6,532 nucleotides of DNA. It comes from a virus. Its lineage: Duplodnaviria; Heunggongvirae; Uroviricota; Caudoviricetes. The DNA lies in the IMG/VR virus record IMGVR_UViG_2711768009_000014. One strand, written 5' to 3'. Below are positions 1 through 6,532 of the stretch, piece by piece; the stretch's first letter is position 1, and each line of letters opens with the position of its first letter. The notes below the pieces were generated by a model. The model saw only the letters and a list, made by a program, of their open reading frames with translations, was not told where the DNA came from and did not search any database. Position numbers and translations under genes: made by a program.

Positions 1-140
1 CATTGAGATTTTCTACAATCGTCAGCGTCGTCACTCTCGTCTGGGGAATATCTCCCCGGCAGCCTTCAGGGAAAAATATCATCAGATGGCTGCTTAAAAA
101 AAGAACAAATGGTAGTGTCCGCTATTGCCAGTACACCTCA
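1..140 (+). mobile_element. IS3-family insertion sequence, right end only (orfB 3' end plus terminal inverted repeat ending ...CA at 140); the rest of the element lies outside the window
   Basis: Bases 1-140 are the exact reverse complement of 6393-6532; identity stops abruptly at 140/141 and 6393/6392. Contains the C-terminal coding end of a transposase with the IS3-family OrfB signature ...FYNRQRRHSRLG..SP..F... The specific IS name cannot be assigned from memory. Confidence 0.8.
2..97 (+). CDS. IS3-family transposase OrfB, C-terminal 31 codons (5'-partial, runs off window start)
   Basis: Frame 2 translation IEIFYNRQRRHSRLGNISPAAFREKYHQMAA* with stop TAA at 95-97; the YNRQRRHS motif is typical of the C-terminus of IS3-family integrase-domain transposases. 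Confidence 0.75.
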   Translation: MEIFYNRQRRHSRLGNISPAAFREKYHQMAA

Positions 141-325
141 GGATAGCGGTCATGTGATGCCGGTTTCCCGGTAACTCAGCACCGGTATCTGAGTCAACGT
201 TTTCTCTACTGGGTCATTTCCGATACGCCCTGCCTGCTGACAGGCTTTCATCACATCTGAAAATATAGCACCCTGACTGATACTGTAGTACCTAAGGTTC
301 CAGAAACTGTGATGTATCCGGCACA

Positions 326-347
326 GAAAAGCCCCTCCGGAGAGGGC
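326..347 (-). terminator. Possible rho-independent terminator downstream of the tRNA cluster
   Basis: Minus strand reads CCCTC-tccg-GAGGG (5-bp stem) followed by GCTTTTCTGTG; short stem, imperfect U-run. Confidence 0.3.
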
Positions 348-584
348 TGGAGAGTGGCGCTATGTGCCATTGCATGATGCCGGGTGCCTCCCGGTGAATT
401 CAGTACCAGCACCTGAATCCGCGATTATCCCATATACCTACTCGCTGATTGCCCCTCCGCACAGGGGGATTCACCATGCCAGTTTCTTTTAACAAACTCC
501 CCGCAAAACAGACAACTGTCAACCGTCTGAATTGTGAGACATTTAAAAAAAAGGCCCGCAAAAGCGAGCCAGGGAAAATAAGTG

Positions 585-1952: not shown

Positions 1953-1984
1953 CCACAAATAAAAAAGCCTTCACTGCGGAAGGC
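1953..1984 (-). terminator. Rho-independent terminator overlapping the stop codon of the 65-aa ORF
   Basis: Minus strand: GCCTTC-cgcagt-GAAGGC (6-bp perfect stem) followed by TTTTTTATTTGTGG. Confidence 0.55.
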
Positions 1985-2168
1985 GTCTGTAACAACCGAA
2001 CTGATAGTCTGCCAGACCCGCCATAACCAGCTGGGTCAGTATTAACTGGCAGCGTTCGCGTGAAAGGTAAGTATTCTGCGCTATCTCCCCGACTGTCGCC
2101 GGTTCGGTAACGCTTAATTCATTAAACACCACTCTGGCGGTTTCTGTCATATCCTGCTGTTTTAGCAT
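1971..2168 (-). CDS. Hypothetical small protein (65 aa), possible helix-turn-helix DNA-binding fold; first ORF downstream of pR'/tR'
   Basis: ATG at 2168-2166 preceded by AAAGGAAAAGAC; protein MLKQQDMTETARVVFNELSVTEPATVGEIAQNTYLSRERCQLILTQLVMAGLADYQFGCYRRLPQ. The segment TVGEIAQNTYLSRERCQLILTQL resembles an HTH recognition helix; no family assigned. Confidence 0.45.
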   Translation of the reverse strand: MLKQQDMTETARVVFNELSVTEPATVGEIAQNTYLSRERCQLILTQLVMAGLADYQFGCYRRLPQ

Positions 2169-2288: not shown

Positions 2289-2310
2289 AAAAAACCCGCT
2301 CGGCGGCGGG
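2289..2310 (-). terminator. tR'-like rho-independent terminator of the late promoter leader
   Basis: Minus strand CCCGC-cgccga-GCGGG followed by TTTTTTATG; lies about 45-65 nt downstream of the predicted pR' start. Confidence 0.6.
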
Positions 2311-2351
2311 TTGTAGAAACTCTTCTAACGTCAGGCATAAAACGCCCATCG

Positions 2352-2387
2352 TTATAACGAATTTACCACAGATTCCGGAAAAATCAA
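2352..2387 (-). promoter_or_regulatory. Late promoter pR'-like (Q-dependent), with lambda-type -10 TAAATT and downstream AACGATGGG sigma70 pause element
   Basis: Minus strand, immediately after the Q stop codon: TTGATT (2387-2382) - 16 nt - TAAATT (2365-2360) - cgttata - ACGATGGG. Lambda pR' as I recall it has TTGACT, TAAATT and AACGATGGG at matching spacing. Confidence 0.6.
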
Positions 2388-2392
2388 CCTTG

Positions 2393-3214
2393 TTACCTAG
2401 TTACCTTTTTTAACTGCCGCTCAGCCCATGCTTCTTCAATATCAAACCGGGTCACCAGCGCATCATAAAATTTCTTAACTGTTTTTTCCCATGACGCGCG
2501 TGTTATCTGGTTTGTCACCTCGCATATAGCATTAAATGCCTCCGTTGATGGTAGTCTTTCATAGCCACGACCACCACAACGCTGGCAGTCTCTGATAACA
2601 GGCATACCACGTTTTACCGACTCTTCACGATGAATGGCGACACCACGCCCACGGCAATCCTTACAGGCGGTGGAAACCTCACCCTTTCCGCCACACTCCG
2701 GACAGGCAACTTTTACCACCTCCCTGACTTTTTTCCATTCTTCCCAGTAAGACGGATACACACCTTTCGTACACTTTGCCCATACCGGCGGCTTACCATC
2801 CGGATACTGGATCTTGTTTGTAAAAACCTCGCTTTCAATAAATTTTTTTCCGTGACAGCAGGGGCACTGTTTTTTGCTCGCCGCGCTACGGGCATAATCT
2901 TCAAACGCATACGAAGCCATAATACGCATCACTGCCGGTTTTATTTCTGCCGGGAGTTTTCTTAACGCCGCCACGCGATCACACCGACTGAGTGCATATT
3001 CTGTCAGCAATTCTGTTGCCCGCTCTCTGTCATTCATACTAATGCCCATTTTCCCAAGGAACGCAGAAACCCCCATCTCAGCCCGATTCTGTGTCATGCC
3101 CTGCGCGGCCATCACATCAGTGATACTCAGCGCATCTTTCGACGTTGAGGCCGATGCATCAGTCAGGCCGGGGGATTTTGGGGAGTAGTATTTCGGTAAA
3201 TCTTCCAGTTTCAT
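2393..3214 (-). CDS. Q: Late-gene antitermination protein Q (lambda Q family) with an expanded cysteine-rich zinc-finger region
   Basis: 273 aa; recognisable blocks shared with lambda Q as recalled: N-terminal M-[KR]-LE...K-[FY]-x-SPKSP, TDVMAAxGM, AxYAFxDYxRSAA, C-terminal WxxTVKxxYDALV. The central region carries CPCCHGKK, CPECGGKG, CKDCRGRG and CQRCGGRG (CxxCxGxG repeats). Start ATG overlaps the rusA stop (ATGA); followed directly by the pR'-like promoter. Confidence 0.8.
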   Translation of the reverse strand: MKLEDLPKYYSPKSPGLTDASASTSKDALSITDVMAAQGMTQNRAEMGVSAFLGKMGISMNDRERATELLTEYALSRCDRVAALRKLPAEIKPAVMRIMASYAFEDYARSAASKKQCPCCHGKKFIESEVFTNKIQYPDGKPPVWAKCTKGVYPSYWEEWKKVREVVKVACPECGGKGEVSTACKDCRGRGVAIHREESVKRGMPVIRDCQRCGGRGYERLPSTEAFNAICEVTNQITRASWEKTVKKFYDALVTRFDIEEAWAERQLKKVTR

Positions 3215-3591: not shown

Positions 3592-4650
3592 TTATGCTTT
3601 CCACTTCAGAACACCCGAATTTCTCGCGTGCATTAAAAAACGAATCAGCAACAACAGCTGACTGCCGTGTTTCTCTTCAAAATCTTTTACTCCGGCATGT
3701 AGTTCGTTACGGCATTTACGGCATAACGGAATAACAAACAAATCATCAGCCTTTGTTCCCATCCCTCCCAGTCCATGACCAATGATGTGATGCGGATCAT
3801 CTGCCTGATTGCCACACGTCATGCATTTCTGCGTTTTTACCCAGCGCGTGTATACAGGCATCTCTTCCCGTTGTGATTTCTGGCGCTGGAGATACTGAGC
3901 CGGTGACTCCGGATCAACGGCAATGCTGACCACCGTCTTTTCCTGTGGTGGGTTCTGTTGCTGGTGGACGTGAGGCAGTAACGCAATATTTTTTGTGCGC
4001 TGCTTCAGTATGCTGGTGGCTGTCTGCTCTCCCGGTATGATGTCGCTTTCACTGTACACAGAGCGAATTTTTTCCGCACGCAACCCCAGCGAACGACGTA
4101 ATACCGCTTCCGGTAGCGCGTCCGCCACCTGATTGCGGACCGCCCACCAGGATAATTCAGCCAGAGATAATTCACGCTCCTGCGTACCGCTTATTGCGTG
4201 ACCGATGACGTCAATCATCCATGCTGACAGGTTTTGATGAGCAAGTTGCTCGAGTGATTCGGATGTCTGGTCACGCAGCTGGTTGTCGCAGTGCCAGCAC
4301 AACACCATTGCGCCGGTACCATAACGGTGAATGACGGTTTCGCTGTGATGATAATCGCCGTGTGGCCACTGGCAGGATTTAATATGGCGCAACAGCCAGT
4401 CAGACAATGCACCAGCACCACCAGCAGCACGAATCACCCGTGCGTTACTGAAAAACGGCAGCAATGTTTTGTCTTCCACCAGCGGCTGGCGAGCGGCAGG
4501 AACGACCCCGGACGGCAGATTACGCATGCTTTTTGGTTCCGGCTCCACCAGTATTCTGCCGTTATGGAATGCTGACATTGATTCACGGCCTGGCTTAACG
4601 ATAACCAGACCGAGTTCCGGTACCAGAACAGGTCGAAGTAATACCCGCAC
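3592..4650 (-). CDS. Prophage DUF968-like protein (YdfU-like) with C-terminal HNH-like Cys/His motif
   Basis: 352-aa ORF with GTG start preceded by a strong SD (tctGGAGGtaatGTG); C-terminal CMTCGNQADDPHHIIGHG...CRKCRNELH resembles an HNH/zinc-ribbon nuclease motif. Size and position (immediately upstream of rusA and Q) match the ydfU-type gene of Qin-like prophages; family assignment is from memory. Alternative ATG start at 4578. Confidence 0.6.
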   Translation of the reverse strand: MRVLLRPVLVPELGLVIVKPGRESMSAFHNGRILVEPEPKSMRNLPSGVVPAARQPLVEDKTLLPFFSNARVIRAAGGAGALSDWLLRHIKSCQWPHGDYHHSETVIHRYGTGAMVLCWHCDNQLRDQTSESLEQLAHQNLSAWMIDVIGHAISGTQERELSLAELSWWAVRNQVADALPEAVLRRSLGLRAEKIRSVYSESDIIPGEQTATSILKQRTKNIALLPHVHQQQNPPQEKTVVSIAVDPESPAQYLQRQKSQREEMPVYTRWVKTQKCMTCGNQADDPHHIIGHGLGGMGTKADDLFVIPLCRKCRNELHAGVKDFEEKHGSQLLLLIRFLMHARNSGVLKWKA

Positions 4651-5126: not shown

Positions 5127-5159
5127 GAAAATAAAAACAAAAACCCGCCGAAGCGGGTT
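5127..5159 (-). terminator. Rho-independent terminator at the 3' end of the hok mRNA
   Basis: Minus strand AACCCGC-ttcg-GCGGGTT followed by TTTTGTTTTTATTTT; about 70 nt downstream of the hok stop, as expected for a hok transcript with a 3' fold-back region. Confidence 0.7.
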
Positions 5160-5227
5160 AAGTGTGGGTGCATTGAGGATGCCTGCCCCATCAGAGGTGG
5201 CGAGGGATTTCTCCCCCGCCTGGTCTC

Positions 5228-5383
5228 TTACTCCTCAGGTTCGTAAGCTGTGAAGACAGCGACCTCCGTCTGGCCGGTTCGAATTCGTACCTCGCAGAGG
5301 TCTTTCCTCGTTACCAGTGCCGTCACTATGACGGTTAAACAGATGACGATCAGGGCGATTAACATCGCCTTTTGCTGCTTCAT
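5228..5383 (-). CDS. hok: Hok/Gef-family membrane toxin (type I toxin), HokD/RelF-like, 51 aa
   Basis: MKQQKAMLIALIVICLTVIVTALVTRKDLCEVRIRTGQTEVAVFTAYEPEE: single transmembrane helix plus the conserved C-terminal ...RKxLCEVRIR..G.xEVAAF.AYE block of Hok proteins; SD GGAG 9 nt upstream. The leader (GCTTGAGGCT ... TAGCCTCTTAC ... GCAAGGAGAAG.AGGC.ATGAA) parallels the plasmid R1 hok mRNA leader as recalled. Confidence 0.9.
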   Translation of the reverse strand: MKQQKAMLIALIVICLTVIVTALVTRKDLCEVRIRTGQTEVAVFTAYEPEE

Positions 5384-5431
5384 AGCCTGCTTCTCCTTGC
5401 CTTTCGGCACGTAAGAGGCTAACCTAGATTT

Positions 5432-5505
5432 GCCGTTCATAGATTGAGCCTCAGATTAATGTTAAGCGTCTTGCCGGACGCGTAATGTTAACTGGGGCTT
5501 TTCTC
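5432..5505 (+). ncRNA. Putative Sok-like antisense RNA (antitoxin of the hok locus)
   Basis: On the plus strand inside the hok leader: TTGCCT (5397-5402) - 17 nt - TAACCT (5420-5425), with a transcript complementary to the mok-like SD/start region and ending near GGGGCTTTTCTCT (about 5495-5505), which resembles the 3' end of R1 Sok (GGGGCUAUCUUCUUU). Ends are approximate; no clean terminator hairpin identified. Confidence 0.4.
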
Positions 5506-5559
5506 TATCTGCCTTTTGGTGTTCATGCCTGAGACAGATAGCCTCAAGCACCCGCTGCA

Positions 5560-6392: not shown

Positions 6393-6532
6393 TGAGGTGT
6401 ACTGGCAATAGCGGACACTACCATTTGTTCTTTTTTTAAGCAGCCATCTGATGATATTTTTCCCTGAAGGCTGCCGGGGAGATATTCCCCAGACGAGAGT
6501 GACGACGCTGACGATTGTAGAAAATCTCAATG
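6393..6532 (-). mobile_element. Second copy of the same IS3-family element end, inverted orientation; the rest of the element lies outside the window
   Basis: Exact reverse complement of 1-140. Confidence 0.8.
6436..6531 (-). CDS. IS3-family transposase OrfB C-terminal fragment (5'-partial, runs off window end)
   Basis: Mirror image of 2..97; same translation ...IEIFYNRQRRHSRLGNISPAAFREKYHQMAA*. Confidence 0.75.
   Translation of the reverse strand: MEIFYNRQRRHSRLGNISPAAFREKYHQMAA

Follow-up and report, generated by a model that had tools for sequence, protein, structure and literature searches.

A probable Q-lambda-family late-gene regulatory cassette with a predicted leader of about 65 nt in a lambdoid prophage

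Gene content and context of the locus

The window analysed, i.e. the whole stretch of 6,532 nucleotides taken from the IMG/VR virus record IMGVR_UViG_2711768009_000014 (Caudoviricetes), carries on its minus strand a Q antiterminator gene, followed by a compact set of promoter, pause and terminator sequences and by a short open reading frame (ORF). The gene-sized features considered here, with their coordinates in the window, were the following:

2393–3214, minus strand: Q antiterminator gene, 273 aa, Q-lambda family (Pfam PF03589, E=1.6e-53)
1971–2168, minus strand: first ORF downstream of the terminator tR', 65 aa, with a weak TrmB-like winged-helix match
319–508, minus strand: STnc100 (Rfam, 123.6 bits, above threshold)
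5378–5553, minus strand: sok, the antitoxin RNA of the hok/sok module (Rfam, 112.4 bits, above threshold)
5138–5219, minus strand: isrK-like match (Rfam, 25.8 bits, sub-threshold)

A second terminator-like hairpin (1984-1967) follows the 65-aa ORF, which in phiP27 is labelled a TrmB family regulator. Positions 1829-1859, immediately upstream of the DNA methylase ORF, are 31 consecutive N (masked sequence or an assembly gap), which is probably the reason why that ORF appears as one of 312 aa starting with GTG (the homologue in phage Stx2_EH1910 has 1059 nt). Moreover, a Hok-like ORF of 70 aa lies beside the sok match (5228-5440), and the two ends of the window (1-140 and 6393-6532) form a perfect inverted repeat of 140 nt, which may reflect a genuine repeat common to different prophage regions or an error in the assembly of the source contig.

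Phage Stx2_EH1910 was 92.6% identical across Q and the sequences that follow it, with stx2A located about 2 kb further downstream. In particular, the TrmB-like ORF, the DNA methylase and three tRNA genes come next in that phage, followed by stx2A, and the window has the same gene order down to the tRNA genes, after which the STnc100 match appears instead of stx. Homology of the mEp460_ev081 type ends at position 2287, while homology to many Stx2a phages and to phiP27 begins at position 2312, these phages having other genes upstream; the late terminator is thus a mosaic joint. The cassette of about 105 bp is bounded by such joints, and in close relatives two alternative sequences were found after the T-run, leading either to the TrmB-like ORF or to tRNA genes. 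Furthermore, the 131 bp around the element had a match of at least 80% identity in 2461 of the 5426 complete E. coli genomes, and a related module of the SfV type follows ydfT in the Qin prophage of K-12.

The Q protein and its family

Pfam PF03589 is the Q-lambda family, the families of Q21 and Q82 being PF06530 and PF06323, respectively (PMC9388147). The assignment of PF03589 to the phage 82 or 21 type of Q was rejected on the basis of that source and of the match to Q-lambda in PDB 7UBM (phmmer, E=3.5e-41), which comprised two blocks (residues 1-113 and 182-273) and took in the nozzle-forming N-terminal region as well as the body and the arm. As Q belongs to the Q-lambda family, a promoter and a pause element of the lambda type are expected beside its gene. 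The Q ORF is intact in the window, and the zinc-ligand cysteines (C184, C187, C210 and C213) were kept in the alignment with the Q proteins of lambda and SfV. The N-terminal segment, which forms the nozzle in lambda Q (PMC9388147), was among the most conserved stretches of the same alignment.

An insertion of about 68 aa (residues 114-181; window 2672-2875, minus strand) was found at the base of the zinc-ribbon arm, and it distinguishes the protein from lambda Q. It adds two CxxCxGxG motifs, making four in all, as in the DnaJ zinc domain, and a sub-threshold DnaJ_CXXCXGXG match was obtained in Q. The enlarged DNA-binding arm could be a difference from lambda that matters. A shorter version of this zinc-motif insertion was observed in the Q proteins of SfV and K-12 Qin.

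A further annotation concerns ydfU, which occupies positions 3592-4650 of the window and encodes a DUF968 protein with an HNH domain. Its homologue in one relative (LR597641.1, positions 1154-2203) is annotated as 'Phage antitermination protein Q'; since no PF03589 match was found in it, the label is probably a mis-annotation.

Anatomy of the predicted late promoter and pause element

The sequence between the end of Q and the first downstream ORF was resolved into the following elements, in the order of transcription:

2395–2393, minus strand: Q stop codon TAA, 5 nt before the -35 hexamer
2382–2387, minus strand: -35 hexamer TTGATT, 4 of 6 consensus positions
2366–2381, minus strand: promoter spacer TTTCCGGAATCTGTGG, 16 nt, candidate Q-binding element, last three bases TGG
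2360–2365, minus strand: -10 hexamer TAAATT, identical in lambda and P22
2345–2353, minus strand: predicted start (2353) and sigma-dependent pause element, with AACGAT at +1 to +6 (2353-2348) and GGG at +7 to +9 (2347-2345)
2327–2353, minus strand: predicted 5'-terminal stem-loop of the leader RNA, +1 to +4 (AACG) with +24 to +27 (CGUU)
2336–2337, minus strand: predicted pause position, with T +17 as the RNA 3' end, G +18 next and G +8 at the consensus -10
2289–2312, minus strand: intrinsic terminator tR', stem AACCCGC/GCGGGTT, loop CGCCGA, six-T run

A preliminary description of this DNA had read the minus strand after the Q stop codon as TTGATT, 16 nt, TAAATT, AACGATGGG, a GC hairpin and a T-run, an order that was confirmed base for base; the six bases cgttat (2359-2354, minus strand) separate the -10 hexamer from AACGATGGG (2353-2345). 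The resemblance to lambda pR' and its pause site that it had proposed was also confirmed, spacing included, as lambda presents TTGACT-17-TAAATT-tgactc-AACGATGGG, and the alignment with lambda and P22 agreed position for position with the proposed equivalence of AACGATGGG to the lambda pause element. When six sequences were aligned (the window, lambda, P22, SfV, K-12 Qin and PHB10), the TTG of the -35 hexamer, the TAAnnT of the -10 hexamer, AACGATGG and a downstream CGTT shared columns, the TTGATT of the window being aligned with TTGACT (lambda and P22) and TTGCAT (SfV and K-12 Qin). Moreover, the TGG at the end of the spacer is a TGn extended -10 motif. The alignment supports a putative sigma-70 promoter positionally equivalent to PR' of lambda and P22.

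The combination TAAATT-N6-AACGATGGG had a single exact occurrence in the window, and an average of 0.01 matches with up to 2 mismatches was obtained in shuffled sequences. A generic promoter scan gave no call between positions 1900 and 3300; however, it should be noted that the scan requires 9 of 12 consensus positions and the pR' site reaches 8, so the miss does not speak against a promoter, and lambda pR' itself barely attains 9 matches in the same scoring.

With regard to the start of transcription, lambda pR' has AACGAT at +1 to +6 followed by a discriminator-like GGG (PMC4005639), and in the P22-pbi record the late RNA has its 5' nucleotide marked at the first A of this hexamer, with the qut site over AACGAT. 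As both sources place the start at this base, the RNA would start at position 2353 of the window. [quoted passage not shown] A script applying this rule recovered the known C16/G17 of lambda and found T17/G18 with G8 in the window, a sequence match that points to a pause at about +17.

The pause hexamer was then compared among the best 80 IMG/VR matches, whose Q proteins were 92-100% identical to that of the window and which all share the same promoter-leader-terminator block; these were aligned by their flanks, so that the hexamer count was independent of the motif search. The forms AACGAT, AATGAT, AATAAT, AACTAT, AACAAT, AAAGAT and, once, GACAAT were found in these 80 matches, with A2 and T6 invariant and changes only at bases 1, 3 and 4, and several of the variants were closer to TATAAT than AACGAT is. 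The two invariant bases together with the drift towards TATAAT are what recognition of the hexamer by sigma-70 region 2 would be expected to produce.

Just upstream of the lambda pause element, a -35-like TTGACT has reportedly been described by Nickels et al. in 2002. This element has been lost in the window, where TCGTTA stands at -7 to -2 (2 of 6 positions), while sister variants present TTGCTC there (3 of 6 vs. TTGACT). The promoter spacer differs as well, having 17 nt in lambda and 16 nt of other sequence in the window, and the loss of one base brings TGG next to the -10 hexamer. Both the spacer length and the loss of the TTGACT-like element could be differences from lambda that matter. 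In lambda, sigma region 4 is repositioned to the segment upstream of the pause element (PMC9388147). Prophage late promoters were not mentioned in the genome-wide sigma-70 pause paper.

The spacer was conserved as TTTCC(C/G)GAA(A/T)CTGTG(G/T) in loci where Q was only 50-60% identical and the leaders had diverged, these relatives coming from Klebsiella, Enterobacter, Erwinia, Dryocola, Kalamiella and Chimaeribacter. We only infer from the arrangement in lambda that the conserved spacer is a candidate Q-binding element, because the spacer sequence of lambda itself is not conserved in the window.

In addition, two relatives (L007 and L022) have lost the Q stop codon through an 8-bp deletion (TAACAAGG) directly behind the Q gene. 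Their Q gains 11 codons, which run across the late promoter from the -35 to the -10 hexamer, spacer included, and their pause hexamer is AACTAT instead of AACGAT.

Terminator and leader length

If +1 is position 2353, the hairpin (2312-2293) corresponds to +42 to +61 and the T-run (2294-2289) to +60 to +65. The hairpin was found by the terminator scan (7 pairs, 5 of them GC), which detected four terminator-like sites in 1.4 kb vs. 1.5 expected from shuffles. Among the best 80 IMG/VR matches, relatives kept the stem core CCCGC/GCGGG with a variable loop, and the records of SfV and Ayreon mark the homologous hairpin as a terminator. The whole leader folded at -21.4 kcal/mol (z = -2.47 vs. shuffles), and a terminated leader RNA of about 62-67 nt is predicted.

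In lambda, the termination site at tR' lies at +193 (PMC4914094). The preliminary description had presented the leader of the window as very short: its length stood (about 65 nt vs. 193-194 nt in lambda), but the implied surprise did not, the short leader being the common state in the family and annotated as such for P22. The long leader of the lambda 6S type (about 193 nt, with an internal segment) was not found in the window, whose leader of about 65 nt lacks the lambda interior (about +40 to +135), while a terminator ending within about 55-70 nt of the start, as in the P22 type, was found.

Leader length was surveyed in 301 loci of the Q-lambda family, obtained from three IMG/VR scans, a scan of species-representative genomes and GenBank phages, with the best 80 matches per query, which collapsed to 169 distinct promoter-leader sequences. 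The pause element and the first hairpin-plus-T-run were located by a script with an RNAfold-based terminator finder, except for the pause elements of four loci (L100, L102, L103 and L132), which were assigned by eye. Among the matches listed, the first terminator ended at +50 to +70 in 109 of the 169 distinct sequences, at +70 to +80 in 7, at +80 to +120 in 3, at +120 to +170 in 16, at +170 to +200 (lambda type) in 30 and beyond +200 in 4, figures that are counts and not frequencies because sampling was uneven and confined to the best 80 matches per query. As judged from these predicted terminators, a leader of about 65 nt is the usual design of the Q-lambda family, and the 194-nt 6S RNA of lambda is the outlier. 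The survey also corrects a textbook bias, the 6S leader of lambda being atypical. Moreover, the usual distance from pause to terminator was about 25-50 nt among the matches listed, so Q must render the polymerase resistant to terminators before it has moved more than about 45 nt from the pause, and P22 is a case in which the Q-lambda family manages this over a short distance.

Q proteins with 100% identity in the C-terminal block matched to lambda Q were found beside leaders of two kinds, the P22 type (about 58 nt) and the lambda type (about 193 nt). The interior of the lambda 6S leader (GAGGCGG...CCGCCTAGTTGG...GAGAGGTCTGC) was also observed in a Dryocola prophage (L097, Dryocola sp. BD626), about 95-175 nt past the Q stop codon, where both the Q clade and the terminator differ from those of lambda. 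Its recurrence in this unrelated prophage indicates that it behaves as an inserted module, and the long leader of lambda looks like a short leader plus such a conserved insertion.

Comparison with known systems

Beyond the differences already given, the window shares with lambda a Q of the same family, the identical -10 hexamer TAAATT, the same 6-nt gap to AACGATGGG, an elemental pause consensus at +16 or +17 and an intrinsic terminator ahead of the late genes. The closest known case for leader length was P22 (gene 23 protein), which also has a Q-lambda-family antiterminator, the same layout of promoter and pause and a short leader, with the terminator annotated at +31 to +59. However, the P22 antiterminator is a short form of 207 aa that shares 97% identity with lambda Q. 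Neither the terminator nor the leader of P22 is related in sequence to its counterpart in the window, and the hexamer is followed by GGA rather than GGG.

The module of SfV, Ayreon and K-12 Qin (ydfT/quuQ) resembled the window in AACGATGGGC, in a leader of 63-65 nt and in a homologous terminator, with about 80% identity over +1 to +65 for the SfV type. In contrast, its Q has 250 aa, is 38% identical to that of the window and bears the shorter insertion, while the spacer is TTTTCAAAAAATATGGA and the -10 hexamer TAAGAT or TAAAAT.

On the RNA side, short late-promoter RNAs are known in phages 21, phi80, 82 and P22, and StxS is a regulatory RNA that arises in lysogens from termination at tR' of the always-active pR' (PMC7547250). 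The window would resemble the Stx1 and Stx2a phages of E. coli O157 Sakai in producing such a short constitutive late-promoter RNA ended at tR' (PMC7547250), but StxS has 258 nt and is processed by RNase E to 74 nt, whereas the primary terminated RNA of the window is predicted at about 65 nt.

As a minor observation, six distant relatives with a long Q (L088, L089, L097, L098, L100 and L102) have an inverted repeat, TAGCTCA...TGAGCTA, abutting a -35 hexamer TTTACT. It lies 10-35 nt upstream of the -35 and has no counterpart in the window, in which 5 nt separate the end of Q from this hexamer.

Proposed mechanism and alternative explanations

Taken together, the region is very probably the late-gene regulatory cassette of a lambdoid prophage with an antiterminator of the Q-lambda family. 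It is an ordinary late-promoter cassette of this family, which leaves the known mechanism unchanged, and promoter activity, the pause site, the identity of the Q-binding element and Q-dependent read-through would all follow the lambda scheme. Sigma-70 RNA polymerase would start at A2353 from the promoter formed by TTGATT, the 16-nt spacer, TGn and TAAATT. Sigma region 2 would then re-bind AACGAT plus GGG on the non-template strand (+1 to +9), and the complex would scrunch and pause at about +17 (T17/G18). Without Q, the polymerase would escape the pause and terminate at the hairpin and U-run (+42 to +65), a lysogen thus producing a constitutive RNA of about 65 nt. With Q, the protein would bind the promoter spacer and load onto the paused complex, and the Q-loaded polymerase would read past tR' and later terminators into the TrmB-like gene, the DNA methylase, the tRNA genes and the late genes, which in sister phages include stx2.

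Against this reading, many copies of the cassette sit in cryptic prophages, and some carry uncompensated changes in the pause element. In a first alternative reading, the main product could be a trans-acting prophage small RNA of about 65 nt, like StxS, for which the cassette would be kept in cryptic prophages; this would add to the antitermination role and not exclude it. We consider it rather unlikely, albeit with some arguments in its favour. Precedent is given by StxS itself, a regulatory RNA terminated at tR' (PMC7547250), and the leader has a GC hairpin and a U-tail at its 3' end and folds more stably than shuffled sequences; moreover, the 131-bp region was found in nearly half of the complete E. 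coli genomes, frequently within defective prophages (e.g. K-12 Qin). Against it, no Rfam family was found at threshold over the leader, and the sequence from the pause element to the terminator diverges freely between clades, which argues against a conserved seed region. The second reading, in which the cassette of the window is an inert relic of a defective prophage and regulates nothing, appears improbable. Uncompensated changes of the pause hexamer in close relatives, the 8-bp deletion that lets Q read into the promoter in L007 and L022, and a genomic context made unclear by the masked gap and the inverted repeat at the window ends would fit such decay, but the window itself has an intact Q ORF, the canonical AACGAT plus GGG and a perfect terminator stem, and the 92.6% identical phage is recorded as a Stx2a-converting phage genome with the same gene order.

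It is far less probable still that the hairpin and T-run merely end an early operon after Q, the promoter-like hexamers having arisen by chance, or that they belong to a leader-peptide attenuator. The terminator does lie about 80 nt past the Q stop codon, a 17-codon ORF with an ATG starts at +16, and a weak Rfam Trp_leader match spans positions 2286-2392. However, the exact TAAATT-N6-AACGATGGG match has a chance expectation of about 0.01, and the whole arrangement is conserved in Q-lambda-family loci of many genera; the comparative data contradict this reading. The leader peptide was rejected, the small ORF not being conserved between clades (7 codons in SfV, absent in PHB10 and lambda), and so was the Trp_leader match, the only one over the leader at the permissive threshold, with 21.8 bits, far below the gathering score of 41 (E=0.67).

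On the preferred reading, that of a Q-lambda late-gene cassette, the late-gene switch of a very common type of E. coli prophage would be located here, and in phages of the Stx2_EH1910 type the promoter, pause and terminator would be the control point for the toxin and lysis genes.

A predicted 5'-terminal helix in the leader RNA

The 5'-terminal stem-loop predicted for the leader of the window folds at -9.3 kcal/mol (z = -2.96) and includes an inner helix of +7 to +12 with +16 to +21. In nearly all lineages, the first 4-5 bases of the leader were complementary to a segment ending at +20 to +29, and the same pairing was found in lambda (L001, 788-810) and P22 (L093, 1402-1424). Counted as distinct sequences from +1 to +40, the pairing was AACGA:UCGUU in 26 of them, AAUGA:UCAUU in 14 (on at least 2 leader backbones), AACAG:UUGUU in 4, AAGAAUG:CAUUCUU in 2 and AACAA:UUGUU in 1, with G-U intermediates also present. 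The helix folded well in the window, lambda and SfV, and weakly in the AAUGA and AACAG types.

As the loop lengths differ, the MAFFT alignment of +1 to +34 misregistered the CGTT partners, so the formal pair count was made on the ungapped class, in which the partner ends at +23. In this class, 97.4% of the cells pair, vs. 19-54% when the partner is slid by 1-3 columns, and pair 3-21 was C-G in 23 sequences and U-A in 8, with no mismatches. Uncompensated changes in the helix occurred in rare variants only. The helix itself is probably real. As a more tentative proposal, which we rate somewhat below even, compensatory changes would have maintained this pairing of +1 to +5 with about +19 to +27 throughout the Q-lambda family. 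A limited literature search returned no description of a 5' helix in Q-dependent late leaders, nor of a 5' stem in lambda 6S RNA, and this side finding may be new. [quoted passage not shown]
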